64,000 nt of DNA from Escherichia coli. Its GTDB lineage: Bacteria > Pseudomonadota > Gammaproteobacteria > Enterobacterales > Enterobacteriaceae. Each line of letters starts with the position of its first letter. Positions within the stretch are counted from its first letter, which is position 1. The notes beneath the pieces were generated by a model. That model saw nothing but the letters and a program-made list of their open reading frames with translations, was not told where the DNA came from and searched no databases. Below are positions 11,726 to 55,670 of this stretch, in pieces. Made by a program: the position numbers and the translations under genes. The stretch is taken from the NCBI RefSeq assembly GCF_003334405.1, contig NZ_QOWM01000016.1; one strand, given 5' to 3'.

Positions 11726-11734
11726 TAAACCCTG

Positions 11735-11792: not shown

Positions 11793-11873
11793 ATCCTCAA
11801 TTTGCCTGCTGCTTAATGCATTGCAGATGATTTGCTTCCGTTATACTAGCGTCAGTTGATAGCGGGAGTATTT

Positions 11874-12776: not shown

Positions 12777-12956
12777 TCAGTATAAAAGAGAGCCAGACCC
12801 GCATTTTGTGTATAAAATACCGCCATTTGGCCTGACCTGAATCAATTCAGCAGGAAGTGATTGTTATACTATTTGCACATTCGTTGGATCACTTCGATGT
12901 GCAAGAAGACTTCCGGCAACAGATTTCATTTTGCATTCCAAAGTTCAGAGGTAGTC

Positions 12957-13919: not shown

Positions 13920-13976
13920 TGATTTCGGAAAAAGGCAGATTCCTTTACCCTGAAACCGATGACAGAAGCAAAAATG

Positions 13977-14074
13977 CCTGATGCGCTTCGCTTATCAGGC
14001 CTACATGAATTCTGCAATTTATTGAATTTGCAAACTTTTGTAGGCCGGATAAGGCGTTCGCGCCGCATCCGGCA
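13977..14074. repeat. REP/BIME between pfkA and sbp
   Basis: GCCTGATGCGCTTCGCTTATCAGGCCTAC and GTAGGCCGGATAAGGCGTTCGCGCCGCATCCGGCA; spurious ORF 13959..14156 lies inside. Confidence 0.85.
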
Positions 14075-14238
14075 TGGACAAAGCGCACTTTGTCAGCAAT
14101 ATGAGGCGGATTTCTTCCGCCTTTTTAATCCCTCAACATATACCCGCAAGTTATAGCCAATCTTTTTTTATTCTTTAATGTTTGGTTAACCTTCTGGCAC
14201 GCTTTGCTCATCACAACACAACATAAGAGAGTCGGGCG

Positions 14239-15228: not shown

Positions 15229-15248
15229 TTTCCCCAGGATAATTATCA

Positions 15249-15280
15249 AACCCGGTGGTTTCTCGCGACCGGGTTTTTTA
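15249..15280 (+). terminator. Intrinsic terminator downstream of sbp
   Basis: Hairpin CCCGGT-GGTTTCTCGCGA-CCGGG followed by TTTTTT. Confidence 0.7.
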
Positions 15281-15334
15281 TTTGTCACGATTTTGCGTTA
15301 CCCTTGCATCTCTTTGAGGTACAGGGAAAAAAAG

Positions 15335-16090
15335 ATGAAAAAAGCGGGTCTTCTTTTTTTGGTGATGATAGTTATCGCCGTTGTGGCTGCCGGTATTGGT
15401 TACTGGAAATTAACCGGTGAAGAGTCGGATACATTACGTAAGATTGTCCTTGAGGAATGTTTGCCCAATCAGCAGCAAAATCAAAATCCTTCGCCATGTG
15501 CGGAAGTCAAACCCAATGCCGGATACGTGGTTTTAAAAGATCTTAATGGCCCACTGCAATATCTGTTGATGCCAACGTATCGTATTAACGGTACTGAAAG
15601 TCCTTTGTTGACCGATCCTTCAACGCCGAACTTCTTTTGGTTGGCTTGGCAGGCGCGTGATTTTATGAGCAAAAAATACGGCCAGCCGGTTCCCGATCGC
15701 GCGGTTTCTTTGGCGATCAACTCCCGCACCGGGCGTACGCAAAACCATTTTCATATTCATATCTCTTGTATTCGTCCTGATGTGCGCAAACAGCTGGATA
15801 ACAATCTGGCGAACATCAGCAGCCGCTGGTTGCCACTGCCAGGTGGTTTGCGCGGGCATGAATACCTGGCGCGTCGGGTAACGGAAAGCGAACTGGTACA
15901 ACGCAGCCCATTTATGATGCTGGCAGAAGAAGTACCTGAGGCGCGGGAACATATGGGACGCTACGGGCTGGCGATGGTACGGCAGAGTGATAACTCATTT
16001 GTATTGCTGGCGACACAACGAAATCTACTGACGCTTAACCGTGCTTCAGCCGAGGAAATTCAGGATCATCAGTGTGAGATTTTGCGTTAA
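15335..16090 (+). CDS. cdh: CDP-diacylglycerol pyrophosphatase
   Basis: Track ORF 15143..16090 trimmed to [33 protein letters not shown] (251 aa). Confidence 0.9.
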
Positions 16091-16112
16091 GGCGAAGAGT
16101 TAAGGAAAGTAA

Positions 16113-16135
16113 GTGCCGGATATGAAATCCGGCAC
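16113..16135. terminator. Hairpin between convergent cdh and tpiA
   Basis: Perfect inverted repeat GTGCCGGA-TATGAAA-TCCGGCAC in the 54-bp convergent spacer; no strong T-tract, so terminator function is tentative. Confidence 0.4.
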
Positions 16136-16144
16136 CTGTCAGAC

Positions 16145-16912
16145 TTAAGCCTGTTTAGCCGCTTCTGCAGCTTTAACGATTACTGCGAAGGCGTCAGCTT
16201 TCAGAGAAGCACCACCAACCAGCGCGCCGTCGATATCCGGCTGAGCAAACAGTTCTGCAGCGTTAGACGCGTTTACAGAGCCGCCGTACTGAATGATCAC
16301 TTGTTCAGCGATGTTAGCGTCAACTTTAGCGATGTGGTCACGGATGAATTTGTGAACAGCCTGTGCCTGAGCCGGAGTTGCAGATTTGCCAGTACCGATT
16401 GCCCATACAGGTTCGTAAGCGATAACCGCACCTTCGAATGCCGCAGCACCCTGAGTTTTCAGTACCGCGTCGATCTGACGTGCGCAAACTTCTTCAGTTT
16501 TGCCCGCTTCATTTTCAGCTTCGGTTTCACCGATGCACAGAACCGGAGTCAGGCCCTGCTCTTTCAGCACCGCGAATTTTTTCGCGATCAGTTCGTCAGA
16601 TTCTTTGTGGTAAGTACGACGTTCAGAGTGACCGATGATGATGTACTGTGCGCCGATGTCTTTCAGCATAGCAGCAGAGGTTTCACCGGTGAATGCGCCG
16701 GACAGGTTCAGGTCCACGTTTTGCGCACCCAGCATGATGTGGCTGCCTTCAGCTTCGCGCTTCGCCATATCGATATACATTTCCGGTGGTGCGATTGCAA
16801 CCGCACAGCCAGCAACACCTGCCAGCTCTTTACGCAGGTTAGAAACCAGCTCGTGAACCATGTGGCGGCTGCCGTTCAGTTTCCAGTTACCCATCACTAA
16901 AGGATGTCGCAT
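16145..16912 (-). CDS. tpiA: triosephosphate isomerase
   Basis: 255-aa [46 protein letters not shown]... Confidence 0.96.
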
Positions 16913-17019
16913 TTTAATTCTCCACGCTTATAAGCGAATAAAGGAAGATGGCCGCCCCGCAGGGCAGCAGGTCTGTGAAACAGTATAGAGATTCATCGGC
17001 ACAAAGGCTTTGCTTTTTG

Positions 17020-17619
17020 TCATTTATTCAAACCTTCAAGCGATTCAGATAGCGCCAGCTTAATCGGTTCAACAGCGAAGGTCAGCCCCTTTTCGCCGTT
17101 GTCCGCGACAACATAACGCAGTGCACCTTCTGTCTCGGTGTAATAACGTTTGTTTTTCCCCGCCGTTAGTAGCGACTGCAGTTTTTTCTGGCTTTGTGTT
17201 TTGGTCATTAATGGGGTGAGTGTGCGGATCACCGCTGCCATGTATTCCTGAGCTTTCGCTTTCGCGGCTTTTTGCTCTGGCCCCTGGATGGGTAGCCAGG
17301 TCATTTGAATGCTTTTGATTTTTAAGGTACCGCGCTCCAGCGCTGTAGAAGCATACAAGTTCTCATTAATTTTACTTGCAGCACGAGTGAGATTGGCTTT
17401 GTCGGGACTGCTGTCGATGGCACGAAATTCGTTCAGTGGCAGGCTGGGATTCTGGCTGTTAAAGTCTTCTCGAAACTGGCTGATGGAGAGATCGAAAGTA
17501 GGGGCTCCAGCCAGCAGATAAGGCGCGGTCGTTGCCGTATCTGGTGTTTGTGCATGCGCCGCTGTTGTAACGGTTAATGCAGAACATAAGAGAAAAAACA
17601 GCGTACACCCTGGCTTCAT
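17020..17619 (-). CDS. yiiQ: DUF1454-family secreted protein of unknown function
   Basis: 199-aa ORF with N-terminal signal peptide MKPGCTLFFLLCSALTVTTAAHAQ. Confidence 0.8.
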   Translation of the reverse strand: MKPGCTLFFLLCSALTVTTAAHAQTPDTATTAPYLLAGAPTFDLSISQFREDFNSQNPSLPLNEFRAIDSSPDKANLTRAASKINENLYASTALERGTLKIKSIQMTWLPIQGPEQKAAKAKAQEYMAAVIRTLTPLMTKTQSQKKLQSLLTAGKNKRYYTETEGALRYVVADNGEKGLTFAVEPIKLALSESLEGLNK

Positions 17620-17719
17620 TGACAGTACCTTTTGTTATGACTGGCTCCGATTAAAACGATATCTGTCGCCCTTGTCAAAAGGGTAGAATCCTGGAAAAGA
17701 CAACCATCAAGGAACTTAC

Positions 17720-18160
17720 ATGACCATACAGCAATGGTTATTCTCATTTAAAGGGCGTATTGGACGCCGTGATTTCTGGATTTGGATAGGCCTGTGGTTC
17801 GCAGGCATGCTGGTGCTTTTCTCACTGGCGGGTAAGAATCTACTCGATATTCAGACCGCGGCGTTTTGCCTTGTGTGCTTGCTCTGGCCAACAGCGGCAG
17901 TAACTGTTAAGCGCTTGCATGATCGCGGGCGTTCCGGCGCATGGGCATTTCTGATGATTGTGGCGTGGATGCTGCTGGCGGGTAACTGGGCGATTTTACC
18001 GGGTGTCTGGCAATGGGCGGTGGGGCGTTTTGTCCCGACGTTGATTCTGGTGATGATGCTTATCGATCTTGGTGCGTTTGTTGGCACACAAGGCGAAAAT
18101 AAATATGGTAAAGATACTCAGGATGTGAAGTATAAAGCCGACAATAAATCAAGTAATTAA
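17720..18160 (+). CDS. yiiR: DUF805-family inner membrane protein
   Basis: 146-aa hydrophobic ORF, MTIQQWLFSFKGRIGRRDFWIWIGLWFAGMLVLF... Confidence 0.8.
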   Translation: MTIQQWLFSFKGRIGRRDFWIWIGLWFAGMLVLFSLAGKNLLDIQTAAFCLVCLLWPTAAVTVKRLHDRGRSGAWAFLMIVAWMLLAGNWAILPGVWQWAVGRFVPTLILVMMLIDLGAFVGTQGENKYGKDTQDVKYKADNKSSN

Positions 18161-18371
18161 CCTTTAATATATCTCTTACTGCTATTTTTTTCCGGGATTG
18201 TTATTTCCACGATGCAAATGACAATACCCGGAAAATCCTTCTGAACTCTTCACCTTAAGCAATATCAAAAAAAATGGTAATCCATAAGATCATTACTTGT
18301 TTGTTCTTCCCTTAACGGCGCATTATTCTTAAGTCGTAATCGACAGAGAGGCGAATATACAGAGGTGCCCT

Positions 18372-18671
18372 ATGAAAGATGTCGTAGATAAATGCAGTAC
18401 TAAAGGATGTGCGATTGATATCGGTACGGTGATTGATAACGACAACTGTACCAGTAAGTTTTCGCGCTTTTTTGCCACCCGCGAAGAAGCAGAGTCTTTT
18501 ATGACCAAACTGAAAGAGCTTGCCGCCGCTACATCCTCTGCAGATGAAGGGGCCAGCGTGGCCTATAAGATTAAGGATCTGGAGGGGCAAGTTGAGCTTG
18601 ATGCGGCCTTCACTTTCTCATGCCAGGCCGAGATGATTATTTTTGAGTTATCACTGCGTTCGTTAGCTTGA
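18372..18671 (+). CDS. yiiS: small conserved protein of unknown function (UPF0381/DUF406)
   Basis: 99-aa [37 protein letters not shown]... Confidence 0.8.
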
Positions 18672-18697
18672 TGGAGTTGCTTTAGAAGGAGTTAAAC

Positions 18698-19126
18698 ATG
18701 GCTTATAAACACATTGGCGTGGCAATTTCCGGGAATGAAGAAGATGCCTTACTGGTGAATAAAGCCCTGGAGCTCGCCAGACATAATGACGCTCACCTGA
18801 CGTTAATTCATATTGATGATGGCTTAAGCGAGTTGTATCCGGGTATCTACTTCCCTGCAACAGAAGATATTCTTCAATTGTTGAAGAATAAGTCGGATAA
18901 CAAGCTGTATAAACTGACGAAAAATATTCAATGGCCGAAGACAAAACTGCGTATTGAACGCGGAGAAATGCCGGAAACACTGCTGGAAATTATGCAAAAA
19001 GAGCAGTGCGACCTCCTTGTCTGTGGTCATCATCACTCATTTATCAACCGTTTGATGCCGGCATATCGCGGGATGATCAATAAGATGAGTGCGGATTTGC
19101 TCATCGTGCCGTTTATCGATAAGTAA
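18698..19126 (+). CDS. uspD: universal stress protein D
   Basis: 142-aa [43 protein letters not shown]... Confidence 0.85.
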
Positions 19127-19130
19127 CCGC

Positions 19131-19877
19131 TTACCAGTAATGCTCCGCTGTCATATGGCCCGGTCGGCGACGTAAATGTTTCGTCATCTGCCGGGTCTCT
19201 TTCAGCAACTGTTGTGTATCGCGCACCATCTGTGGATTGCCGCACAGCATCACATGGCTGGTTTCTTTATTCATCGGCAGGCCAATCGTGCTTTCCAGTT
19301 CCCCACTTTCAATTAATGCCGGTATCCGTCCGGTGAGCGACCCCGCTGCCGTTTCCCGACTGACCACCGTCTGAATGCGCAGTTTTCCTTCGTAGCGTTT
19401 TTCCAGTTCCTGCATCAGTGGCAAATAGCTTAAGTCGGCGGCATAACGTGCGGCGTGCACCAGGACCAGATTTTTGAAGCGATCTAAATCTTTACCTAGT
19501 TGCAGAATCGATAAATAAGGGCCAATCGCTGTACCGGTTGCCAGCATCCATAGCGTTTCGCAGTGCGGCACTTCATCGAGCACAAAGAATCCTGCCGCTT
19601 CGCTAACCACCTGCACTTCATCGCCTGGTTTCAGTGCCGCCAGTCGTGGGCTTAATTTGCCATCGGGGACGGTGACCAGGTAAAACTCCAGATCGGGATT
19701 ATCGGGCGAGTTTACATAGGAGTAGGCGCGCTGGACGCGTTCGCCGTCGATTTCAAGGCCAAGCTTGGTAAATTGCCCGGCGGTAAACGGAAGCACGGGG
19801 GCGTGAACGGTGAGACTAAACAGGGCGTCGGTCCAGTTCTGCACTTTAGTGACTTTGCCTGTTACCCAATCAGCCAT
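19131..19877 (-). CDS. fpr: flavodoxin/ferredoxin-NADP+ reductase
   Basis: 248-aa ORF, MADWVTGKVTKVQNWTDALFSLTVHAPVLPFTAGQFTKLGLE... Confidence 0.93.
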   Translation of the reverse strand: MADWVTGKVTKVQNWTDALFSLTVHAPVLPFTAGQFTKLGLEIDGERVQRAYSYVNSPDNPDLEFYLVTVPDGKLSPRLAALKPGDEVQVVSEAAGFFVLDEVPHCETLWMLATGTAIGPYLSILQLGKDLDRFKNLVLVHAARYAADLSYLPLMQELEKRYEGKLRIQTVVSRETAAGSLTGRIPALIESGELESTIGLPMNKETSHVMLCGNPQMVRDTQQLLKETRQMTKHLRRRPGHMTAEHYW

Positions 19878-19921
19878 GTTTTTCTCCTGTTTTGATTGAC
19901 TTGCCTTATCTTCGTTCTCCG

Positions 19922-19950
19922 AACAAAAAAATTCCAGTCCCGAAGGACTG
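19922..19950 (-). terminator. Intrinsic terminator at the end of glpFKX
   Basis: Minus-strand hairpin CCAGTCC-TTCG-GGACTGG followed by a run of U (plus-strand A-tract 19924..19930), 24 bp past the glpX stop. Confidence 0.7.
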
Positions 19951-19973
19951 GAAGGCTCAATCGATCAAATCAA

Positions 19974-20984
19974 TCAGAGGATGTGCACCTGCATTTCCGG
20001 GTCTTTGCGATCCAGATAGTGGATGGACTGAATGCGGCGAATGGTGCGTGACTTGCCGCGGATCAGCAGCGTTTCGGTAGTCGCGATATTGCCTTTGCGG
20101 CTAATGCCTTCCAGCAGATCGCCTTTGGTAATACCGGTGGCAGAGAAGATGACGTTATCGCTGCGCGCCATATCGCCCAGGCGCAATACTTTACCGGCTT
20201 CGATGCCCATCGCTTTGCAGCGTGCCAGCTCCTGCTCGCCAATGCGACGATTCTCTTCGTTGTCGCCTTTGACGTCATGACGCGCCAGCAGACGACCGTT
20301 CATGTCGCCATCTAATGCGCGGATCACCGCCGCAGAAACTACGCCTTCCGGCGCGCCACCAATACCGTACAGCACGTCAACTTCGCTGTCTGGCATACAG
20401 GTGAGAATTGAGGCCGCAACGTCGCCGTCCGGAATAGCAAATACGCGTACGCCGAGTTGCTGCATTTCAGCGATAACGGCATCGTGGCGTGGTTTAGCCA
20501 GAATCGTTACCGTCAGTTCGCTCAACGGTTTGCCGAGCGCCGCCGCTACATTGCGCAGGTTATCCGCCAGCGGCAGGTTCAGATCAATGGTGCCTTTGGC
20601 TCCCGGCCCGACAATCAGCTTCTCCATATACATATCCGGCGCATTGAGGAAGCAGCCTTTATCGCCTACTGCCAGCACCGCCAGCGCGTTAGCCTGGCCC
20701 ATCGCCGTCATGCGCGTGCCTTCAATCGGATCAACAGCAATATCTACCGCGTCGCCGCGACCAGTACCGACTTTTTCACCAATGTAGAGCATCGGTGCTT
20801 CGTCGATTTCACCTTCACCAATGACGATGGTGCCGTCAATGTTGACCTGGTTGAGCATAATACGCATGGCGTTTACCGCCGCGCCGTCCGCGGTGTTTTT
20901 ATCGCCGCGTCCTAACCATTTGTAGCCAGCCAGCGCCGCTGATTCGGTGACGCGGGAAAATTCGATGGCAAGTTCTCGTCTCAT
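19974..20984 (-). CDS. glpX: class II fructose-1,6-bisphosphatase
   Basis: Track ORF 19974..21113 trimmed to MRRELAIEFSRVTESAALAGYKWLGRGDKNTADGAAV (336 aa). Confidence 0.93.
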   Translation of the reverse strand: MRRELAIEFSRVTESAALAGYKWLGRGDKNTADGAAVNAMRIMLNQVNIDGTIVIGEGEIDEAPMLYIGEKVGTGRGDAVDIAVDPIEGTRMTAMGQANALAVLAVGDKGCFLNAPDMYMEKLIVGPGAKGTIDLNLPLADNLRNVAAALGKPLSELTVTILAKPRHDAVIAEMQQLGVRVFAIPDGDVAASILTCMPDSEVDVLYGIGGAPEGVVSAAVIRALDGDMNGRLLARHDVKGDNEENRRIGEQELARCKAMGIEAGKVLRLGDMARSDNVIFSATGITKGDLLEGISRKGNIATTETLLIRGKSRTIRRIQSIHYLDRKDPEMQVHIL

Positions 20985-45124: not shown

Positions 45125-47626
45125 TTACAGTTCCAGTTCATGTTGCAGCAGGCTGGCGATAGCGTCGGCAGAGGCGGCGTTAACCAGCGCGTTACGGAAT
45201 TCTTCGTGCATGATGCGGCGAGCGAGGCGCGAGAAAATGCGCATATGCTGATCGCCCGCAGCGTGTTTGTTCAGGGTTAACATAATGATGAATTGCGCTT
45301 CATCATCGCCCCAGCGCACCGGCGCTTGCAGACGCGCCACGCTGATGGTGGATTGCTCAATGTGTTCTGATTTGCTGTGTGGAATGGCAAAACTAAAGCC
45401 CAGACCGGTAGAGAAAACGGCCTCGCGCGCCCACAAGTCGGCTTCCAGTTTACGCGGATAGCGGCAGCGGCCCGCCAGCAGCAGGTTATCGGTCATGCCT
45501 TTGAGCACTTCTTCTTTGCTGCGCCAGTCGCTTTCCAGTGTGATGCACTCGGCGGTGACCAGCGGTGCGTCTTGTTGGGTCATGCGGAATTGCGCCAGCA
45601 GGTGTTCCACTTCCAGCGAAGTACGGCAGGCCATTGCCTGGTTGAGCAACTTGCGGCACTCACGGCTATCAAGTTGCGCCATCCGAGCTTTCGCCGCCGG
45701 AATTGATGGTGCGCTCATGCTGAGTTCATCCAGCCCTAAGCCGACCAGCAACGGCAGCACGGAACCTTTCGCTCCCAGCTCACCGCACAGACCAATCCAT
45801 TTGCCCTGGCGATGCACCGCTTGCACGGCGTAATCGAGCGCCCGCAAGAATGCCGGATTCAGGCTGTTGTAGTGACGAGTAACCTTAGCGTTATCGCGAT
45901 CCACCGCCAGCAGATACTGCGTCAGGTCATTACTACCAATACTAAAGAAATCAATCTCTTCGCAGCATTGATCGATGATGAACATCACCGACGGCACTTC
46001 CAGCATGATGCCGAGCTGGATTTTCTCATCAAACGGAATGTGTTCGTTACGTAGTTGCTGTTTGGCTTCCGCCAGTTTTTCTTTCACCCATAAGATCTCT
46101 TCCATTGAGGAGATCATCGGGATCATGATTTTCAGGCTGCCGTGAGCGGAGGCGCGGAGGATCGACCGTAGCTGCGTGGTAAACAACGACGCGTACTCTT
46201 CATAAATACGCACGGCGCGATAACCGAGGAACGGGTTTGCCTCTGCGGGAATGTTCAGATAATCAACGGGTTTGTCGCCGCCAATGTCCATAGTGCGCAC
46301 AATAATGCTGCGTCCGTTGGCGGATTCCAGCGCCTGACAAAAAATGTTGTACAACTCGCTTTCGCCCGGTGCGCTGGTGCGATCCATATAGAGCATTTCA
46401 GTGCGGAACAAACCAACGCCTTCCGCACCATTGCCGAATGCGGCCTGCGCTTCCACGGAGTGAGCGATGTTAGCGGCAATTTCAATGCGGATACCGTCAG
46501 CGGTACGGGCTTGTTGGGTCAGCCAGACACGCTGTTGCTCACGCAGGGCGTCCTGTACGCGGGCTTCTTGCTGATAATAACGAGCTACGGCTTCCCCTGG
46601 CTCAACCACAATCGCCCCGGCGTTGCCGTCGATATAAATCGTTTGTTGCTGCCACGGAGTAAGGGCATCAATATCCACACCAACCAGCGTTGGAATGTTG
46701 AACGAACGGGCAAGGATCACCGTATGTGAGGTGGTGCCGCCGCTTTTGAGCAACAATCCTTTGAGGTGATTTTTATCCAGTTCGAGGAACTGGCTGGGGG
46801 TCAGTTCATCAGCCATACAAATGGCGGGCTGCGTCAGTTTGCCCGGTGCCGGGAAGCGTTGCTCACCGTAGATTTGCTGGAGTAACTGGAAGCAGACGTC
46901 GCGTACGTCCAGGGCACGTTCTTGCAGGTAGCTGCTGCTGGAACGGGAAAACTCTTCGCAAAAGTGATTCGCGCTGGCAACAATTGCTTCGGCGCAGCTT
47001 AATCCGGCGCTGACGCCTGCCAGTAAATGTTCGCGCAGGGAAGTATCGCCAGCCAGGGATCGGTGAGCTTCCAGAATCGCGCTGGTAGCACCGTCGCTAT
47101 CCAGCAGACGAAACTCAATGTTTTTCAGTACCAGCGTCAGGCCGTTTTCCAGTGCGGATTGCTCGGCGTCAACGCCTTTGGCTGCGGGAAGATTACCCAG
47201 CGCATTGAGATCTAAAGAAGAGATCGGCGTCAGAATGCCGCCTGCACTACCGCTGCACACGGTGCGGGCGCGGATAATTTGCGGATTCAGATTGGTCAGT
47301 GAAACCGGCAGTGGTTCCAGTTCGTCAGATTTAACTTCCGCCAGCGGCGCATCGCAGTGGGGGAATTCATCGCGCAGCCATTGGCTTAAACGCTGGTGCG
47401 CTTCCTGTTCGTCGGCCCCGGAAATCAGTAACTGGCAGTTATCGCCCGCCAGCGTATCGGTGCCAATCAGCGCAAGGGCGCTTTTGGCGTTGCCCTTGCG
47501 GTCAGTGCGCAGGTTATGCCACTCAATTTGTGATGAAAAAGTATTACACAGCGTTTCAACGTGGCTTGCCGGACGCGCATGTACGCCGTTAGGTAGCTCA
47601 CAAATAAATTCCACAATCAGGGCCAT
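45125..47626 (-). CDS. ptsA: multiphosphoryl transfer protein (fused PTS domains: IIA-like, HPr-like, enzyme I-like)
   Basis: 833-aa [31 protein letters not shown]... (HPr-like N-terminus with the phospho-His context GVHARPA) followed by a PEP-utilising enzyme I-like region. Confidence 0.9.
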
Positions 47627-47934
47627 TGCCTCTCTCCCGGTACGGTTTTCTGTTTACAGGATAAGAGCGCACGGCAACGGCCTGCCATGTGACAAATCTG
47701 CCAAAAGCTGGACAAATGTAATGTAACCGTCAATTTGCGACGCGTCTCACAAGACGCTGTTTTGCGGCATGCTTCCGGTTTATCGCAAGTTATGAGGCGG
47801 ATCGCATTTTTGTACTGATATTACAAAAGTCCAGTAAATGGCCTTTTTATCCACTGTTTGCTCCGCCTGCGATTGCCTATTGTTTCCTCCATCAAAAATA
47901 TGGACATGGGCTTTCGCAAGCCCGGGAGCAGCTT

Positions 47935-49014
47935 ATGAATGAGTTGGTGCAGATCCTGAAAAATACCCGTCAGCATTTAATGACGGGCGTTTCACACATG
48001 ATTCCCTTCGTGGTATCGGGCGGTATTTTGCTGGCGGTTTCCGTCATGTTGTATGGCAAAGGCGCAGTGCCGGATGCCGTAGCCGATCCAAATCTGAAAA
48101 AACTGTTTGATATCGGCGTTGCGGGCTTGACGCTGATGGTGCCTTTCCTCGCAGCGTACATCGGTTATTCCATTGCAGAGCGTTCTGCGCTGGCTCCGTG
48201 CGCTATCGGTGCCTGGGTTGGTAACAGCTTTGGTGCGGGCTTCTTTGGTGCACTGATCGCCGGGATTATCGGCGGCATCGTGGTGCATTACCTGAAGAAA
48301 ATTCCGGTGCATAAAGTTCTGCGCTCGGTGATGCCTATCTTCATTATTCCTATCGTCGGCACACTGATTACCGCAGGCATCATGATGTGGGGCTTGGGCG
48401 AGCCTGTAGGGGCGTTGACCAACAGCCTGACTCAGTGGCTTCAGGGGATGCAGCAGGGCAGCATTGTTATGCTGGCGGTGATCATGGGTCTGATGCTGGC
48501 GTTCGATATGGGCGGTCCGGTTAACAAAGTGGCCTATGCCTTCATGCTGATTTGCGTTGCTCAGGGTGTTTATACCGTGGTGGCCATCGCTGCCGTGGGT
48601 ATTTGTATCCCGCCGCTGGGGATGGGGCTGGCGACGCTGATTGGTCGTAAAAATTTCTCCGCAGAAGAGCGCGAAACCGGCAAAGCGGCACTGGTGATGG
48701 GCTGTGTTGGCGTTACTGAAGGGGCGATTCCTTTCGCCGCTGCCGATCCGCTGCGTGTCATTCCTTCCATCATGGTCGGTTCAGTTTGTGGTGCAGTAAC
48801 TGCGGCGCTGGTCGGTGCGCAGTGCTATGCAGGCTGGGGTGGTCTGATTGTGCTGCCGGTGGTTGAAGGCAAGCTGGGTTATATCGCAGCAGTGGCTGTC
48901 GGAGCAGTGGTGACGGCTGTTTGTGTGAACGTGCTGAAAAGTCTGGCGCGTAAAAATGGGTCTTCGACTGATGAAAAAGAAGACGACCTGGATTTGGATT
49001 TTGAAATTAATTAA
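47935..49014 (+). CDS. frwC: fructose-like PTS permease IIC component
   Basis: 359-aa polytopic membrane ORF, MNELVQILKNTRQHLMTGVSHMIPFVVSGGILLAVSVMLYG... Confidence 0.88.
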   Translation: MNELVQILKNTRQHLMTGVSHMIPFVVSGGILLAVSVMLYGKGAVPDAVADPNLKKLFDIGVAGLTLMVPFLAAYIGYSIAERSALAPCAIGAWVGNSFGAGFFGALIAGIIGGIVVHYLKKIPVHKVLRSVMPIFIIPIVGTLITAGIMMWGLGEPVGALTNSLTQWLQGMQQGSIVMLAVIMGLMLAFDMGGPVNKVAYAFMLICVAQGVYTVVAIAAVGICIPPLGMGLATLIGRKNFSAEERETGKAALVMGCVGVTEGAIPFAAADPLRVIPSIMVGSVCGAVTAALVGAQCYAGWGGLIVLPVVEGKLGYIAAVAVGAVVTAVCVNVLKSLARKNGSSTDEKEDDLDLDFEIN

Positions 49015-49028
49015 TTGAGGAACGAGCC

Positions 49029-49349
49029 ATGACGAAAATTATTGCAGTAACCGCATGTCCTTCAGGTGTTGCCCATACCTATATGGCAGCAGAGGCGCTG
49101 GAAAGTGCCGCGAAAGCGAAAGGCTGGGAAGTGAAAGTAGAAACCCAGGGGTCAATTGGTCTGGAAAATGAACTGACTGCGGAAGATGTGGCGAGCGCTG
49201 ATATGGTGATTCTGACCAAAGATATCGGCATCAAGTTTGAAGAGCGTTTTGCTGGCAAGACCATCGTGCGCGTCAACATCAGCGATGCAGTAAAACGTGC
49301 TGACGCCATTATGAGCAAAATTGAAGCTCACCTGGCGCAAACCGCTTAA
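49029..49349 (+). CDS. frwB: fructose-like PTS IIB component
   Basis: 106-aa ORF, MTKIIAVTACPSGVAHTYMAAEALESAAKAKGWEVKVETQG...; phospho-Cys context TACPSG. Confidence 0.88.
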   Translation: MTKIIAVTACPSGVAHTYMAAEALESAAKAKGWEVKVETQGSIGLENELTAEDVASADMVILTKDIGIKFEERFAGKTIVRVNISDAVKRADAIMSKIEAHLAQTA

Positions 49350-49399
49350 GTTCTTCTCCCGCTCGCAAGGGCGGGTTCGCTTTCCCACAGGAGTTCCTC

Positions 49400-51697
49400 A
49401 TGACGAATCGTATCTCTCGCCTCAAAACTGCACTGTTTGCCAATACCCGTGAAATCTCGCTGGAGCGGGCGCTGCTTTATACCGCCAGCCATCGGCAAAC
49501 CGAAGGCGAACCGGTGATATTGCGCCGGGCGAAAGCAACAGCGTATATCCTTGAACATGTTGAAATTTCGATTCGTGATGAAGAACTGATTGCCGGTAAC
49601 CGCACCGTAAAACCGCGCGCCGGGATTATGTCGCCGGAAATGGACCCTTACTGGCTGCTGAAAGAGCTGGATCAATTCCCGACGCGTCCGCAGGACCGCT
49701 TTGCTATCAGCGAAGAAGATAAACGTATCTACCGTGAAGAGTTGTTCCCGTACTGGGAAAAACGTTCGATGAAAGATTTCATCAACGGGCAGATGACAGA
49801 TGAAGTAAAAGCCGCGACCAACACGCAGATTTTCAGCATCAACCAGACGGATAAAGGCCAGGGGCACATTATTATTGATTACCCACGCCTGTTGAATCAC
49901 GGGCTGGGTGAGCTGGTGGCACAGATGCAGCAACATTGTCAGCAACAGCCGGAGAATCACTTTTATCAGGCCGCGTTGTTACTGCTGGAAGCCTCGCAGA
50001 AACACATTTTGCGTTACGCCGAACTGGCGGAAACGATGGCGGCAAACTGCACAGATGCCCAGCGTCGCGAAGAGCTGCTGACTATTGCAGAGATCTCCCG
50101 CCATAACGCGCAACATAAGCCGCAGACGTTCTGGCAGGCGTGCCAGTTATTCTGGTACATGAACATCATTCTGCAATACGAATCCAACGCCAGTTCGCTA
50201 TCGTTGGGGCGCTTCGACCAGTATATGTTGCCGTTCTATCAGACATCATTAACCCAGGGCGAAGATGCGGCGTTCCTGAAAGAACTGCTCGAATCTTTAT
50301 GGGTGAAATGCAACGACATCGTGCTGTTGCGCTCCACCAGTAGCGCGCGTTATTTCGCCGGTTTCCCGACCGGCTATACCGCACTGCTCGGCGGGTTAAC
50401 CGAGAACGGACGTAGCGCGGTGAACGTGCTTTCGTTCCTTTGCCTTGACGCCTATCAAAGCGTGCAATTACCGCAACCGAACCTCGGCGTGCGCACTAAC
50501 GCCTTGATCGACACGCCGTTCCTGATGAAAACCGCCGAAACCATTCGCTTCGGCACCGGTATTCCGCAAATCTTTAACGATGAAGTGGTGGTGCCAGCGT
50601 TCCTCAACCGTGGCGTTTCGCTGGAAGATGCGCGCGACTATTCCGTAGTGGGCTGTGTGGAATTATCTATTCCCGGCAGAACCTACGGCTTGCATGACAT
50701 CGCGATGTTTAATCTGCTGAAAGTGATGGAAATCTGCCTGCATGAAAATGAAGGCAATGCTGCGCTGACTTATGAAGGTTTACTGGAGCAGATCCGCGCC
50801 AAGATCAGCCACTACATCACCCTGATGGTTGAGGGCAGCAATATTTGTGATATCGGCCATCGCGACTGGGCACCTGTACCGCTGCTCTCATCGTTTATCA
50901 GCGATTGTCTGGAAAAAGGCCGCGATATTACCGATGGCGGCGCGCGTTATAACTTCTCCGGCGTACAGGGGATCGGTATCGCCAACCTGAGCGATTCTCT
51001 CCATGCGTTGAAAGGGATGGTTTTTGAGCAACAGCGTTTAAGTTTTGACGAATTGCTGTCGGTATTAAAAGCCAACTTCGCAACGCCAGAAGGCGAAAAA
51101 GTCCGCGCTCGCTTAATTAACCGCTTCGAGAAATACGGTAACGATATCGACGAGGTGGATAACATCAGCGCCGAACTGTTGCGCCACTACTGCAAAGAAG
51201 TGGAAAAATACCAGAACCCGCGCGGCGGCTACTTCACGCCGGGATCGTATACCGTTTCTGCTCACGTCCCGTTGGGATCGGTGGTTGGCGCGACGCCAGA
51301 CGGTCGTTTTGCCGGAGAACAGCTGGCAGACGGCGGCTTGTCACCCATGCTGGGCCAGGACGCACAAGGGCCAACAGCGGTACTGAAGTCAGTCAGTAAG
51401 CTCGATAACACGCTGCTGTCTAACGGTACGTTGCTGAACGTGAAATTCACTCCGGCGACCCTGGAAGGTGAAGCAGGATTACGCAAACTGGCCGACTTCT
51501 TACGGGCGTTTACCCAGCTTAAGTTACAACATATTCAGTTTAACGTGGTGAACGCCGACACGTTGCGGGAAGCGCAACAGCGCCCACAAGATTATGCCGG
51601 GCTGGTGGTGCGCGTTGCCGGATACAGCGCCTTCTTTGTCGAACTGTCGAAGGAGATCCAGGATGACATCATCCGCCGGACAGCGCATCAGCTGTAA
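49400..51697 (+). CDS. pflD: glycyl-radical enzyme, PFL family (annotated formate acetyltransferase 2)
   Basis: 765-aa ORF; C-terminal glycyl-radical motif RVAGYSA (Gly codon at 51620..51622); active-site loop VGCVE (Cys codon 50654..50656, Glu 50660..50662). Confidence 0.9.
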   Translation: MTNRISRLKTALFANTREISLERALLYTASHRQTEGEPVILRRAKATAYILEHVEISIRDEELIAGNRTVKPRAGIMSPEMDPYWLLKELDQFPTRPQDRFAISEEDKRIYREELFPYWEKRSMKDFINGQMTDEVKAATNTQIFSINQTDKGQGHIIIDYPRLLNHGLGELVAQMQQHCQQQPENHFYQAALLLLEASQKHILRYAELAETMAANCTDAQRREELLTIAEISRHNAQHKPQTFWQACQLFWYMNIILQYESNASSLSLGRFDQYMLPFYQTSLTQGEDAAFLKELLESLWVKCNDIVLLRSTSSARYFAGFPTGYTALLGGLTENGRSAVNVLSFLCLDAYQSVQLPQPNLGVRTNALIDTPFLMKTAETIRFGTGIPQIFNDEVVVPAFLNRGVSLEDARDYSVVGCVELSIPGRTYGLHDIAMFNLLKVMEICLHENEGNAALTYEGLLEQIRAKISHYITLMVEGSNICDIGHRDWAPVPLLSSFISDCLEKGRDITDGGARYNFSGVQGIGIANLSDSLHALKGMVFEQQRLSFDELLSVLKANFATPEGEKVRARLINRFEKYGNDIDEVDNISAELLRHYCKEVEKYQNPRGGYFTPGSYTVSAHVPLGSVVGATPDGRFAGEQLADGGLSPMLGQDAQGPTAVLKSVSKLDNTLLSNGTLLNVKFTPATLEGEAGLRKLADFLRAFTQLKLQHIQFNVVNADTLREAQQRPQDYAGLVVRVAGYSAFFVELSKEIQDDIIRRTAHQL

Positions 51698-52541
51698 CGT
51701 TGTGGAAACGCGCCGCGATGATGTGGCGCGCATTTTCAACATTCAGCGTTATTCACTGAATGACGGCGAGGGCATTCGTACGGTGGTCTTTTTTAAAGGC
51801 TGTCCGCATCTTTGCCCGTGGTGTGCTAATCCGGAGTCGATCTCCGGCAAAATCCAGACGGTACGCAGAGAGGCGAAATGTCTGCACTGTGCGAAATGTT
51901 TGCGTGATGCGGATGAATGCCCCTCCGGGGCGTTTGAACGGATTGGTCGCGATATCAGCCTTGACGCTCTGGAACGGGAAGTGATGAAAGATGACATTTT
52001 CTTTCGCACGTCCGGCGGCGGCGTCACGCTTTCTGGCGGCGAAGTGTTAATGCAGGCGGAGTTTGCTACCCGTTTTTTACAGCGACTGCGGCTGTGGGGT
52101 GTGTCATGCGCCATTGAAACTGCCGGAGACGCACCAGCCAGCAAGCTATTACCGCTGGCGAAATTGTGCGATGAAGTGTTGTTCGATTTAAAAATTATGG
52201 ACGCGACTCAGGCGCGGGATGTGGTGAAGATGAACCTGCCACGCGTGCTGGAGAATCTGCGTTTGCTGGTGAGTGAGGGCGTCAACGTGATCCCGCGTTT
52301 ACCGCTGATCCCTGGTTTCACGCTCAGCCGGGAGAATATGCAGCAGGCGCTGGATGTACTGATCCCGCTGAATATCAGGCAGATCCATCTGTTACCGTTT
52401 CATCAGTACGGCGAACCGAAATACCGCCTGCTGGGGAAAACATGGTCGATGAAAGAGGTGCCTGCGCCGTCGTCAGCTGATGTGGCAACGATGCGCGAAA
52501 TGGCAGAACGGGCCGGACTTCAGGTTACCGTGGGAGGTTAA
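51663..52541 (+). CDS. pflC: glycyl-radical enzyme activating enzyme (radical SAM)
   Basis: Track ORF 51594..52541 trimmed to MTSSAGQRISCNVVETRRDDVARIF (292 aa); radical-SAM cluster motif CPHLCPWC plus a second Cys-rich stretch CLHCAKCLRDADECP; 35-bp overlap with pflD. Confidence 0.88.
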   Translation: MTSSAGQRISCNVVETRRDDVARIFNIQRYSLNDGEGIRTVVFFKGCPHLCPWCANPESISGKIQTVRREAKCLHCAKCLRDADECPSGAFERIGRDISLDALEREVMKDDIFFRTSGGGVTLSGGEVLMQAEFATRFLQRLRLWGVSCAIETAGDAPASKLLPLAKLCDEVLFDLKIMDATQARDVVKMNLPRVLENLRLLVSEGVNVIPRLPLIPGFTLSRENMQQALDVLIPLNIRQIHLLPFHQYGEPKYRLLGKTWSMKEVPAPSSADVATMREMAERAGLQVTVGG

Positions 52542-52542
52542 A

Positions 52543-52884
52543 ATGGCATACCTGGTGGCAGTAACCGCCTGCGTAAGCGGCGTGGCGCATACTTATATGG
52601 CGGCGGAACGGCTGGAAAAGTTGTGCCTGTTAGAGAAGTGGGGAGTCAGCATTGAAACTCAGGGCGCGCTGGGAACGGAGAATCGTTTAGCGGATGAGGA
52701 TATCCGCCGGGCGGATGTTGCTCTGTTGATTACGGATATCGAGCTTGCCGGTGCCGAGCGATTTGAACATTGCCGCTATGTGCAATGCAGCATCTACGCA
52801 TTCCTGCGTGAGCCGCAGCGGGTAATGAGCGCGGTGCGCAAAGTGCTTTCTGCGCCGCAGCAAACCCATCTTATTCTGGAGTAG
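52543..52884 (+). CDS. frwD: fructose-like PTS IIB-type component
   Basis: Track ORF 52480..52884 trimmed to MAYLVAVTACVSGVAHTYMAAERLEKL (113 aa); paralogous to frwB (same TAC.SGVAHTYMAAE motif). Confidence 0.85.
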   Translation: MAYLVAVTACVSGVAHTYMAAERLEKLCLLEKWGVSIETQGALGTENRLADEDIRRADVALLITDIELAGAERFEHCRYVQCSIYAFLREPQRVMSAVRKVLSAPQQTHLILE

Positions 52885-53722
52885 TCGGTTTTTCTGTCAG
52901 TTGGCTGTGGTACTGCCGGCGATATTCCGACGGCGAGCGTTCGGTGTTTTTACGAAACAGACGGCAGAAGTAGTTGCTGTCGACAAAGCCGCAGGCGTGC
53001 GCCACTTCTTTTACCTTCAGGTCATAGCCTTTCAATAACGTCTTAGCGTGCTCCAGTCGCGTGTGATTCAGGTATTCGTTAAAACCAATGGCCCCCGTTT
53101 TTTGAAACAGGTGCGAGAGGTAATTTGGCGAAATATAAAACGCCTGTGCAACAGATTCGCGGGTAAGCGCGGAGGCATAGCGTTCGTCGATATAATCGCG
53201 AATAGCTTCAAATAGTGCCTGGCTGCGTGAGGCGGTCTGGATTTGGCTGCCAAGCAAATCGCGGCAGTGGCTAAGCAGGCTGGCGACGATAAGCCTTGCC
53301 GTTTGCTGCTCCTGCGGCTGCATTTGCATTTCATTGAGCGTTTGTAGCAGAAAAGAACCTATGCGTGGGCCGCGTCGGGCGACGTGTTGCTTCGCCAGAT
53401 TTTGATATTGTTTGCCATCCCATTGCACGACGCTGAAGCCGAGTTGCTGTTTGCCAAACAGCACGCTAAAGGTAGTAGCGGGGGCTTGCCATTGTGGAAA
53501 ATTCCAGCCACCAGCAGGAACGTACAGCACATCGCCGGGAACTAACGTTGCTCCAGCGCCGGTATCAACAAACTCACCTTCCAGCACAATTTCCAGCCGT
53601 GGAAAATCGACCTGATACGCAAGATCGGGCACCGGGCCGTTACTGCTGGCAAAGTAAATCTGGCGCAGGGACAGCGGGCCGTTGATCAGGCGGGAGAGCA
53701 GATAGCTGACGTCGTGATACAT
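52871..53722 (-). CDS. yijO: AraC-family transcriptional regulator
   Basis: 283-aa ORF; C-terminal AraC-type HTH (…NEYLNHTRLEHAKTLLKGYDLKVKEVAHACGFVDSNYFCRLFRKNTERSPSEYRRQ). Confidence 0.85.
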   Translation of the reverse strand: MYHDVSYLLSRLINGPLSLRQIYFASSNGPVPDLAYQVDFPRLEIVLEGEFVDTGAGATLVPGDVLYVPAGGWNFPQWQAPATTFSVLFGKQQLGFSVVQWDGKQYQNLAKQHVARRGPRIGSFLLQTLNEMQMQPQEQQTARLIVASLLSHCRDLLGSQIQTASRSQALFEAIRDYIDERYASALTRESVAQAFYISPNYLSHLFQKTGAIGFNEYLNHTRLEHAKTLLKGYDLKVKEVAHACGFVDSNYFCRLFRKNTERSPSEYRRQYHSQLTEKPTTPE

Positions 53723-53769
53723 GTTATTCCCTTAGGTATGTAGACGGGAAAACAGTAACTGGCATTATT

Positions 53770-53798
53770 AAAAAAGGCCACCTGAAAAGTGTGGCCTG
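53770..53798 (-). terminator. Intrinsic terminator downstream of eptC
   Basis: Minus-strand hairpin GGCCAC-ACTTTTCAG-GTGGCC followed by TTTTTT. Confidence 0.7.
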
Positions 53799-53833
53799 AG
53801 GGGAGTTCGATGTAAACATTGCGGCAGTTGTAT

Positions 53834-53917
53834 TGCCGGATGTGGCGTAAACGCCTTATCCAGCCTACCGCCGCGATCTGTAGGCCGGATAAGACGCGTC
53901 AAGCGTCGCATCCGGCA
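53834..53917. repeat. REP/BIME between eptC and yijO
   Basis: TGCCGGATGTGGCGTAAACGCCTTATCCAGCCTAC and GTAGGCCGGATAAGACGCGTCAAGCGTCGCATCCGGCA; spurious ORFs 53768..53962 and 53819..54025 lie inside. Confidence 0.85.
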
Positions 53918-53936
53918 AATAGCGCCTGGCTGATAA

Positions 53937-55670
53937 TTACTGATTACCCACCTGATCGCCATAGGGCAGTGTGTCGTAATCGATCAGTGCGTTTTTCTTA
54001 TACGGGTTACCAATCCAGCGGGTAGTTTCTTTGAACTGCGGATTCACCACTGAACGGGTTGGATCGTAACCGTCGTAAGATAAGCCCGCCAAATCTGACC
54101 AGGTGTGGATCAGTTCCGCCAGGCTGTATTTACGATCAACATCCTGCGAGAAATCACGGGGATGAGTCGCTTGCCATTTTTCTGACGTCCACAGCAGGAA
54201 CGGAATGGTGTACATATGACGCGTCGGGTTGTCCTCATTACGCCCCTGAGTTTTGTGCGGCGGCGTGTCGTAAACCTCTTCACCGTGGTCAGAGAAATAA
54301 ACCAGGAAACCGTTCGGGTTTGCTGCTTTAAAGTCTTTAATCAGGCTGGCAACCACATGATCGTTATACAGGTTAGCGTTGTCATAATCGTTATATGACT
54401 CCAGCTCTTCCGCGTTTAATCCCGGCGGAACATGATCGGTATTGCCATCAAACTTGCCCTGATTTTCCGGGTAGCGGTATTTGTATTTGATATGCGTACC
54501 CAGCAGATGAACAATGATCAGTTTCTTCGGCGCAGGGTCATTCAGCACTTCCTGGAACGGCTTCAGCACGTTGGTGTCGTATTCACGCGCACTCTGCGTA
54601 CGTTGCTGGTTCATGTAGTACTGCTTGTCGGTCTGGCGCGAAAATACCGTCAGCATGGTATTGCGGGCGGTCATCGTCTGCTGGTTGGTGATCCAGAAGG
54701 TTTTATAACCCGCCTGTTTCATCATGTTCATCAGCGACGGCTGCGTCAGATACAGATCCGGGTTCTTTTCATTGGCAAAGGTCAGCGCCTGTTGCAGGAT
54801 TTCAATGGTGTACGGACGAGACGTAACTACGTTATTAAACACGGTCAGATTCGGATCGGTTTTATGCAGCGCATCCAGCTCCGGCGTGGTTTCACGCGGA
54901 TAACCGTACAGACTCATGCGTCCGCGCTGGGTCGACTCGCCAATCACCAGCACTAAAGTGCGCGGTTCGTTACCCGATTCATCTTTGAAATTAGCCAGTG
55001 GCGGCAAGGCATTATTTTCATTCAGTAACTTTGTTAGCGAGTTTAGTTGCTGACGATACTGATAATAGCCGGTCAGGAATTGCCACGGTGCGGCAGGCTC
55101 CATACGCGAGGCCAGGTTATCCAACGTTTTCTCAAACGGCTTGTTTTTGATAAACGTATTCATGGCGATCGGATGCAGAATCAAGCCATAAAGCAGGGCA
55201 AAAGAGACAACATAACGCCACGGCTTTGGAATATAGACCGGGCGCAGGCGTGTCCACAGCAGAACTGCCACCGCCGTATAGGCCAGCGCGATAAGCACAA
55301 TTTTCAGGCTGAAATACTGGCTTAAATACTCGCTGGCTTCGTTGGTGTTGGTTTCGAACATCACAAACAGAACGCTCTGCGAGAACTCCTGACCGTAGAT
55401 GACGTAGTAGCACAGCGCCGCCAGAGAGGCCGCCCATAGCACCACGCCGATTACTGCGGCAATAATTTTAATCCGCTTCGGAAAGAGGAATACCGGGATC
55501 AACCACAGCGAACTGAATAACAGCGAGTCGCGAATGCCGTTAGTGCCACTATAACCACTGATGTAAATAATGGCCTGTAGCAGAGTAGAGAAAAACCAAA
55601 AGTAGAGCAGTGCCCAACCCAGGGCTTTCCAGCTAAAAAGAGGTTTAGCCTGGACTTCTGTGGAATGCAT
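53937..55670 (-). CDS. eptC: phosphoethanolamine transferase (LPS core modification)
   Basis: 577-aa ORF, MHSTEVQAKPLFSWKALGWALLYFWFFSTLLQAIIYISGYSG...; N-terminal TM segments plus sulfatase-like domain. Confidence 0.88.
   Translation of the reverse strand: MHSTEVQAKPLFSWKALGWALLYFWFFSTLLQAIIYISGYSGTNGIRDSLLFSSLWLIPVFLFPKRIKIIAAVIGVVLWAASLAALCYYVIYGQEFSQSVLFVMFETNTNEASEYLSQYFSLKIVLIALAYTAVAVLLWTRLRPVYIPKPWRYVVSFALLYGLILHPIAMNTFIKNKPFEKTLDNLASRMEPAAPWQFLTGYYQYRQQLNSLTKLLNENNALPPLANFKDESGNEPRTLVLVIGESTQRGRMSLYGYPRETTPELDALHKTDPNLTVFNNVVTSRPYTIEILQQALTFANEKNPDLYLTQPSLMNMMKQAGYKTFWITNQQTMTARNTMLTVFSRQTDKQYYMNQQRTQSAREYDTNVLKPFQEVLNDPAPKKLIIVHLLGTHIKYKYRYPENQGKFDGNTDHVPPGLNAEELESYNDYDNANLYNDHVVASLIKDFKAANPNGFLVYFSDHGEEVYDTPPHKTQGRNEDNPTRHMYTIPFLLWTSEKWQATHPRDFSQDVDRKYSLAELIHTWSDLAGLSYDGYDPTRSVVNPQFKETTRWIGNPYKKNALIDYDTLPYGDQVGNQ

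Follow-up and report, generated by a model that had tools for sequence, protein, structure and literature searches.

In the frw operon of Escherichia coli, the genes pflD, pflC and frwD are packed so closely that they overlap or nearly touch. The question was whether this packing reflects genuine gene starts, and whether it implies coupled translation and a fixed stoichiometry of the three products. Both had been proposed in a sequence-only reading of the locus. We analyzed a window of 64,000 nucleotides from E. coli K-12 (contig NZ_QOWM01000016.1, assembly GCF_003334405.1). The three genes are all on the + strand. The pflD coding sequence (49400–51697, 765 aa; ORF list, translation and RefSeq) ends with TAA at 51695–51697, the pflC coding sequence (52541 being its last base, 292 aa) runs from ATG 51663–51665 to TAA 52539–52541, and frwD (113 aa; ORF list and RefSeq) occupies 52543–52884. 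The bases, read directly, bore out the placement of both junctions in the earlier reading. The pflC ATG lies 35 bases inside pflD, at the 11th sense codon from its end and in the +1 frame, and the frwD ATG follows the pflC stop after one base, A 52542. The spacings of −35 and +1 leave no room for a promoter or terminator between the genes, and a promoter/terminator scan found nothing promoter-like inside the operon on the + strand. The ORF list and the RefSeq annotation of the identical K-12 record agreed with these boundaries, and the −35/+1 architecture was unchanged in six more E. coli genomes (98.6% to 97.1% identical). The boundaries are already known; they stand in the RefSeq annotation, and a published table gives the two pairs as −35 and +1. 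Overall, this is an ordinary gene architecture that was known before.

The identities of the products were assigned with family models. PflD, a glycyl-radical enzyme, matched NCBIfam NF007437 over its full length (1724.8 bits, cutoff 1109) and scored 1356 against TIGR01774 (cutoff 678), which places it in the PFL2/glycerol dehydratase subfamily. PflC, a radical-SAM activase, matched NF007483 with residues 1–292 on the 292-position model (627 bits, cutoff 326) and scored 262 against the radical SAM activase model TIGR02494 (cutoff 174). Its translation carries the CxxxCxxC cluster motif as CPHLCPWC. Residue 21 of PflC aligned to residue 3 of the solved E. coli PflA structure, and the radical-SAM core begins at about residue 21. 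FrwD, a PTS IIB-like protein, matched NF007747 with residues 1–113 on model positions 2–114 (224 bits, cutoff 153) and the PTS fructose-type IIB domain model TIGR00829 (85.7, cutoff 76.9).

Long overlaps are often suspected of being start-codon errors. We compared the pflD–pflC junction in 51 gammaproteobacterial orthologous loci. The pflC ATG inside pflD, at −32 from the pflD stop, was kept in 50 of the 51, with the same overlap. In E. coli, the 35-nt overlap (51663–51697) contains pflC codons 1–11 and part of codon 12, and a variable linker, codons 12–21 (51698–51725), leads from the pflD stop to the conserved ARIFNIQ core. This post-overlap linker varied from 10 to 28 codons among the orthologues. 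The stretch from the pflD stop to the core took 10 different lengths, each 1 mod 3 and in frame. The pflC frame from the internal ATG was open in all 51 loci; stop codons within the linker numbered 0 in the pflC frame and 18 and 43 in the other two. About 20 species lacked any start codon from the pflD stop to the radical-SAM core.

The pflC Shine-Dalgarno sequence, AAGGAG (51650–51655), is built from Lys-Glu codons of pflD and is followed by a 7-nt spacer and the ATG. At these codons, 42 of 45 orthologues had AAG and 46 of 51 had GAG; GGAG survived where the Lys of PflD was replaced by Gln or Arg. We then ranked the twofold-degenerate codons among the final 150 of pflD by variability. Of the six that varied least, five supply the pflC Shine-Dalgarno sequence and ATG, and the top four all fell among those five columns of 40 (chance probability 5.5e-5). 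Vibrio orthologues lacked the pflC Shine-Dalgarno sequence and had a second in-frame ATG at −8. The comparison of orthologues showed that this putative pflC initiation site inside pflD is kept by selection across Gammaproteobacteria.

The earlier reading had noted that a downstream in-frame pflC start would remove the overlap. Two such codons are present in E. coli, GTG 51702, which is 4 nt past the pflD stop and close to the efficient reinitiation range, and GTG 51723, just before ARIFNIQ. A mis-annotated start would agree with a core that begins only at about residue 21, and in Firmicutes homologues the start does lie past the glycyl-radical enzyme stop, a few residues ahead of IFNIQ. However, neither GTG has a Shine-Dalgarno sequence and neither is conserved, and across the 51 loci a downstream start was contradicted by the conserved ATG, the open linker frame, the species with no start codon in the linker and the synonymous constraint. 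We consider it very unlikely that pflC begins at either GTG, and minor extra initiation may occur at GTG 51702 in Escherichia and Citrobacter. An upstream ATG at 51594 was found in a few loci only and was unconserved. A programmed +1 frameshift at the pflD stop, producing a PflD-PflC fusion in the manner of prfB, would fit the +1 frame of pflC and the stable hairpin just 3′ of the stop. But a slippery sequence is absent. Depending on the orthologue, pflD ends with CTG, TTG, CTC or TTA as its final sense codon and with TAA, TGA or TAG as its stop, and initiation, not frameshifting, accounts for a conserved Shine-Dalgarno sequence and an ATG 32 nt upstream. We regard frameshifting as extremely improbable.

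The pflC–frwD junction was compared in the same way. It reads TAA-A-ATG (52539–52545), and the two Gly codons that close pflC spell the frwD Shine-Dalgarno sequence GGAGG (52533–52537), with a 5-nt spacer before the frwD ATG. K-12, the six other E. coli, Citrobacter, Phytobacter, Pluralibacter and Lelliottia shared the 1-nt gap; E. albertii and Enterobacter had a gap of 2 nt, and elsewhere it was 15–45 nt. In several genera frwD was missing downstream of pflC. All 24 loci in which the next gene starts close by (within 5 nt) had GGAGG-type terminal Gly-Gly codons, against 6 of the 27 others (Fisher p = 5e-9, for species that are phylogenetically non-independent). In Vibrio, the GGAGG-stop-N-ATG arrangement recurred before a different downstream gene. 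At both junctions, the Shine-Dalgarno sequence of the downstream gene lies inside the upstream ORF and is conserved at synonymous sites. Judged from these alignments, the two junctions are conserved and look selected. A possible upstream frwD start, ATG 52480, was present among the loci examined in K-12 and L003 only.

RNA folding was predicted around the pflC start. In the 51625–51745 fold, the pflC Shine-Dalgarno sequence and AUG were predicted to be paired in both the minimum-free-energy and the centroid structures (z = −2.5). An 8-bp hairpin (51631–51655) is predicted in which CCUUCUUUG, from pflD Ala-Phe-Phe-Val codons, pairs with the Shine-Dalgarno sequence CGAAGGAG. A small GGAUG/CAUCC hairpin (51661–51674) is predicted around the AUG. 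Across 51 species, 94% of cells were pairable in the first hairpin, with small covariation, and 96% in the second, with no two-sided changes; covariation was nearly absent because the PflD peptide there is invariant. Among 56 initiation regions in the window, that of pflC had the second lowest predicted accessibility and the lowest predicted folding energy. Both predicted hairpins lie within the stretch of pflD read by its ribosomes, which ends at 51697. Both arms of the Shine-Dalgarno hairpin are upstream of the footprint of a ribosome at the stop codon, so the simple picture of a terminating ribosome holding the structure open is inapplicable.

These features were set against published spacing rules. 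Coupling is most efficient at stop–start spacings of −4 to +3 nt, and reinitiation coupling drops steeply with longer overlap, with none at −25 in one systematic study (Brown & Wade 2025). The +1 spacing of pflC–frwD is inside the efficient range and the −35 spacing of pflD–pflC is outside it. For frwD, the +1 spacing and the strong Shine-Dalgarno sequence at the end of pflC make coupling to pflC plausible. The "tight coupling" of pflC to pflD proposed earlier is unjustified as stated. Judging from the predicted structure, any coupling at −35 would more likely involve unfolding of the RNA, or else the kind of inefficient back-scanning seen in MS2 coat-lysis. A literature search returned no transcript, ribosome-profiling, start-site, reporter or other translation data on pflC or the operon.

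An alternative is that the genes, though compact, are not coupled: overlap and 1-nt gap would be by-products of genome compaction and start-codon drift, and pflC and frwD would initiate independently of upstream translation. Both Shine-Dalgarno sequences are near-consensus and well spaced, and such strong sites could support independent initiation. A spacing of −35 is outside the reinitiation range in test systems, the frwD gap ranges from 1 to 45 nt among genera with frwD absent downstream in several, and the overlapping bioB-bioF pair was found to initiate independently. But four of five overlapping pairs tested in E. coli were coupled. By prediction, few initiation regions in the window are as structured as that of pflC, and this speaks against efficient initiation on its own; the internal start persists across taxa though the linker is free to vary; and the GGAGG-stop-N-ATG arrangement recurs before a different gene in Vibrio. 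We consider independent initiation somewhat unlikely. Because the predicted pairing covers both the Shine-Dalgarno sequence and the AUG of pflC, and −35 is beyond the efficient range, pflC most likely needs pflD translation. The reading we favor, with moderate confidence, is that these are two genuine frw junctions with the ribosome-binding site in the last codons of the upstream gene, where pflC initiation depends on pflD translation and frwD has reinitiation-range spacing.

Under the favored reading, pflC would be translated from AUG 51663 via AAGGAG 51650–51655, both within conserved C-terminal codons of pflD. The first ~20 PflC residues would form a spacer peptide under weak sequence constraint before the radical-SAM core. 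Ribosomes translating pflD would open the structure over the pflC Shine-Dalgarno sequence and AUG and permit initiation, and rare back-scanning after pflD termination may add to it. PflC output would then track that of PflD, at a lower level. Translation of frwD would start from AUG 52543 via the GGAGG of the terminal PflC Gly-Gly codons, where the +1 spacing would, by the published rules, allow efficient termination–reinitiation or Shine-Dalgarno-assisted post-termination initiation.

The two junctions resemble different known systems. As in short-spacing coupled E. coli pairs (−4 ATGA, −1 TGATG/TAATG, to about +3; Huber et al. 2019, 2023; Brown & Wade 2025), pflC and frwD are co-directional, are spaced at +1 and have a strong Shine-Dalgarno sequence in the upstream 3′ end. 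The differences are that their products are not known as a complex, that the +1 spacing is kept only in a subset of Enterobacteriaceae, and that coupling here is read from the sequence. The pflC start is more like that of the MS2 coat-lysis pair (−50 nt), as it precedes the stop of the upstream gene by tens of nucleotides and has a ribosome-binding site predicted to be structured. Low downstream output tied to upstream translation, typical of that pair, would be expected for pflC too. Unlike MS2 coat-lysis, pflC has a strong conserved Shine-Dalgarno sequence, and its structure is by prediction. A glycyl-radical enzyme gene adjacent to and co-directional with that of its radical-SAM activase, at very short spacing, is also found in E. 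coli ybiY-ybiW and in Firmicutes PflD-like loci, and Huber et al. listed the COG1180/COG1882 pair among conserved close pairs. The paralogous ybiY-ybiW has the opposite gene order, with the activase first and a +5 gap. In the Firmicutes homologues, the activase starts 5–24 nt past the enzyme stop with its own intergenic Shine-Dalgarno sequence, and the N-terminal extension is absent. By this comparison, only the gammaproteobacterial pflD-pflC lineage places the activase start within the enzyme gene.

Fixed stoichiometry, which the sequence-only reading had drawn from the packing, does not follow. Glycyl-radical activases act catalytically. A complex is not known, and Huber et al. flagged both pflD-pflC and pflC-frwD accordingly ("CMPLX not"). 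The reversed order of ybiY-ybiW and a hairpin after the pflD stop also speak against it. The packing of these three genes therefore indicates co-expression and probably dependent translation, not a fixed 1:1:1 ratio.

The hairpin, a side finding of the analysis, is conserved and in E. coli spans 51699–51740 on the + strand, with an inner GC stem at 51709–51730 flanked by an A-tract and AUUUUC. At −20.8 kcal/mol, its predicted energy ranks in the 1st percentile among stretches of equal length taken from pflD and pflC. The terminator scan did not flag it because its T-run is too short, and an Rfam search of 47000–54000 gave only sub-threshold REP-like naRNA4 matches, outside the operon. In 20 of 51 loci, the stretch past the pflD stop ranked among the lowest 5%. 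Covariation was moderate, and distant taxa had different, unrelated hairpins at the same place. A predicted stable hairpin right past the pflD stop suggests differential, not equal, expression. One speculative extension, which we consider unlikely, is a conserved module for setting product ratios, made up of the internal pflC start together with the hairpin. The pflC start would stay in pflD so that a sequence-tolerant translated spacer could hold the RNA hairpin, and this terminator-like structure would act as a partial terminator, an mRNA 3′-end stabilizer or a translation brake. If so, a single operon would yield abundant PflD and scarce PflC, with pflC still gated by pflD translation.

The results have little reach beyond annotation quality. 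On the comparative evidence, the unusually long 35-nt same-strand overlap of K-12 reflects a genuine gene start under selection, not a misplaced start codon, and the locus illustrates cleanly how an upstream gene can maintain ribosome-binding sites at its synonymous positions. The frw/pflDC locus was recently linked to anaerobic 1,5-anhydromannitol use (Ma et al., as summarized in PMC12441222). How the enzyme-to-activase ratio is set at frw/pflDC is a small but reasonable question, for which the hairpin after the pflD stop is a concrete candidate element.

pflD (49400-51697), pflC (51663-52541) and frwD (52543-52884) all lie on the + strand, and the ORF list, translations and RefSeq agreed on these coordinates. 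NCBIfam models identified PflD, PflC and FrwD as named. Direct reading of the + strand bases placed the pflC Shine-Dalgarno sequence AAGGAG at 51650-51655, 7 nt ahead of the pflC ATG (51663), and the pflD stop TAA at 51695-51697. At the second junction, the frwD Shine-Dalgarno sequence GGAGG (52533-52537) was followed by the pflC stop TAA (52539-52541), a lone A (52542) and the frwD ATG (52543). The sequence-only reading had reported a 35-nt overlap of pflD with pflC, the latter in a different frame, and a 1-nt gap between the pflC stop and the frwD ATG; all were confirmed by the bases, ORF list, translations and RefSeq, the pflC frame being +1. The window is E. coli K-12 sequence: 49300-53000 was 100% identical to K-12 records, and 5419 of the 5426 complete E. 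coli genomes contain it. The same layout (stop-to-start spacings of -35 and +1 nt) recurred in six further E. coli genomes, chosen to span 98.6% down to 97.1% identity. Overlaps occurred in three of about 37 annotated co-directional neighbour pairs of the window: cpxR-cpxA (4 nt), rhaB-rhaA (4 nt) and pflD-pflC (35 nt). Both spacings already appear in Huber et al. (2023, supplementary table). The junctions are real, selected gene starts; they are standard annotation, already in print, and an instance of a well-known operon architecture.

We took 80 related loci, one per species, and analyzed the 51 gammaproteobacterial loci with pflD directly upstream of pflC. Their genera include Escherichia, Citrobacter, Klebsiella, Enterobacter, Serratia, Hafnia, Rahnella, Yersinia, Edwardsiella, Gilliamella, Necropsobacter and Vibrio. 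A downstream in-frame pflC start would remove the overlap, and E. coli contains GTG 51702 and GTG 51723 downstream, together with ATG 51594 upstream. Conservation of the internal ATG, the linker frame and synonymous constraint ruled against a downstream start. Of the 51 loci, 50 kept the ATG 32 nt upstream of the pflD stop (Vibrio hannami did not), and about 20 species had no other ATG, GTG or TTG between it and the conserved core. The PflC DGxGIR motif lay at ten different distances past the pflD stop (64, 67, 73, 76, 82, 85, 91, 94, 115 and 118 nt), each of them 1 mod 3, and in every locus the reading frame set by the internal ATG stayed open. At least nine independent length changes all preserved the frame, with a probability of about 5 × 10^-5 were the linker non-coding. 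Summed over the 51 loci, linker stops numbered 0 in the pflC frame versus 18 and 43 in the other two.

Since the PflD C-terminal peptide is almost invariant, synonymous sites at the end of pflD are informative. The last 150 pflD codons include 40 conserved twofold-degenerate columns, of which Asp-11 (GAT in 50/51), the source of AT in the pflC ATG, varied least. The next-least variable were Lys-15 (AAG), Gln-12, Asp-10 and Glu-14 (GAG), whose codons make up the Shine-Dalgarno sequence and spacer and add the G of the pflC ATG. GGAG was retained even in orthologues with Lys replaced by Gln or Arg. On these alignments, the annotated pflC start and its overlap are very probably real and selected; minor additional initiation at GTG 51702 may occur in Escherichia.

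In an alignment with the solved E. coli PflA structure, PflC residue 21 matched PflA residue 3; therefore, the first ~20 residues of PflC are a lineage-specific extension. The pflD frame determines codons 1-11 of this extension; its remaining codons vary freely. In contrast to the gammaproteobacterial internal start, the activase of Firmicutes homologues begins 5-24 nt past the enzyme stop behind a Shine-Dalgarno sequence of its own, and the spacing up to the activase core follows no fixed value mod 3. In Vibrio, three of four orthologues (loci L047, L049 and L052) lacked the pflC Shine-Dalgarno sequence (AAAGAAATTCAAGATG), V. hannami (L045) retained AAGGAG, and all four had a second in-frame ATG 8 nt upstream of the pflD stop. 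With its -32 ATG lost (GAC codon) and the -8 ATG present, V. hannami may have shifted its pflC start, giving an 11-nt overlap.

From its start at 52543, frwD matched its NCBIfam model end to end. An upstream frwD start, ATG 52480, was rejected as not conserved among orthologous loci. The arrangement GGAGGN-stop-N-ATG, with a 1-nt gap, was found in E. coli, Citrobacter, Phytobacter, Pluralibacter, Lelliottia and Edwardsiella hoshinae. Enterobacter, E. albertii and one divergent 'E. coli' lineage had a 2-nt gap, whereas in Klebsiella, Raoultella, Serratia, Hafnia, Rahnella and Yersinia the gap was 15-45 nt and included a Shine-Dalgarno sequence of its own; several genera had no frwD downstream of pflC. 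The conserved terminal Gly-Gly of PflC was encoded as a GGAGG/GGGGG-type run in 24/24 loci with the next ORF at most 5 nt away, compared with 6/27 otherwise, two of these six being misclassified adjacent starts. The association of codon choice with an adjacent start had a Fisher p of 5 × 10^-9, among species that are not phylogenetically independent. In two Vibrio species, the same motif preceded a different next gene. Escherichia FrwD (52543-52560) was five codons short after Met-Ala, reading MAYLVAV versus MAVASVRYLVAV in Citrobacter, Phytobacter and Pluralibacter (loci L005-L012, ~4381-4410); this in-frame deletion left the stop-N-ATG junction intact.

The tight packing had been taken to imply coupled translation. 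In E. coli, coupling is most efficient at -4 to +3 nt and decays with positive spacing and faster with growing overlap; one systematic study detected no coupling at -25 (Brown & Wade 2025). Of five overlapping E. coli pairs tested, four were coupled, and the Shine-Dalgarno sequence made a difference in four of five. Under the published spacing rules, frwD, with +1 spacing and a strong Shine-Dalgarno sequence, is a good reinitiation candidate. Its coupling to pflC is plausible, and would proceed by termination-reinitiation or by Shine-Dalgarno-assisted initiation straight after termination. Because of its -35 spacing, pflC is not a good candidate for efficient reinitiation under these rules. 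RNA unfolding is the favoured model where overlaps are long, as in MS2 coat-lysis (-50). In the predicted fold, the pflC Shine-Dalgarno sequence paired with CCUUCUUUG at 51631-51638 and the AUG lay within a GGAUG/CAUCC stem (z = -2.5 versus shuffles). The pflC initiation region had the second-lowest predicted accessibility and the lowest folding energy of 56 in the window, a set in which some starts in the first 20 kb were mapped 1-2 nt off. These folds fit a need for pflD-translating ribosomes, which would open the RNA over the pflC initiation region by a mechanism distinct from that at frwD; pflC output would then be tied to pflD and probably lower. A ribosome on the pflD stop would already be past both arms of the Shine-Dalgarno hairpin, so the simple picture of a terminating ribosome holding it open does not apply. 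The pflC hairpins are not confirmable by covariation because the encoded peptide is invariant. A literature search for experimental work on translation of the frw/pflDC operon found none.

A stable terminator-like hairpin was predicted at 51699-51740, directly 3' of the pflD stop in the variable pflC linker, with GGAAA and AUUUUC on either side of an inner stem at 51709-51730. The hairpin's energy was -20.8 kcal/mol versus -10.9 ± 3.8 for same-length pflD/pflC windows (1st percentile). The linker window fell in the lowest 5% of energy in 20/51 loci and the lowest 10% in 27/51. Longer linkers contained unrelated strong hairpins (Zophobihabitans, Gilliamella, V. hannami, Necropsobacter, V. maritimus), and the hairpin was absent from several Citrobacter, Rahnella, Hafnia and Vibrio loci among the 51. 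Covariation was moderate (one pair GC:5, CG:4, GU:3, AU:1), scoring above 500/500 shuffles in one alignment and matched by 37/500 in the other. The modeled hairpin could act as an attenuator, a 3'-end stabilizer or a translation brake. The 50-nt frwB-pflD gap also contained a terminator-like GC hairpin, CCCGCTCGCAAGGGCGGG then TTCGCTTTCC (49358-49375), a possible attenuator of transcription into pflD.

Activases of glycyl-radical enzymes act catalytically. Huber et al. (2023) mark neither pflD-pflC nor pflC-frwD as a complex in their table. The E. coli K-12 paralogous pair ybiY-ybiW (locus L091, 42341-45678) has the opposite order, activase first, with a +5 gap. The hairpin at 51699-51740, if functional, would favour unequal expression. 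On these grounds, the fixed stoichiometry proposed by the sequence-only reading was unsupported. The ybiY-ybiW pair adjoins a second fsa gene. A 2025 review (PMC12441222) credits Ma et al. with identifying PflD as the glycyl-radical enzyme that acts after a PTS to cleave 1,5-anhydromannitol-6-phosphate.

The 3' ends of frwD (+) and yijO (-) overlapped convergently by 14 nt (52871-52884), and the yijO-eptC intergenic region (53793-53953) had two sub-threshold Rfam naRNA4 matches (REP-like repeats). In the W3110 record NZ_CM143902.1, starts mapped 1-2 nt off for genes in window 1-20000, which implies that the record and the window differ by small indels; uspD is marked frameshifted in the record.
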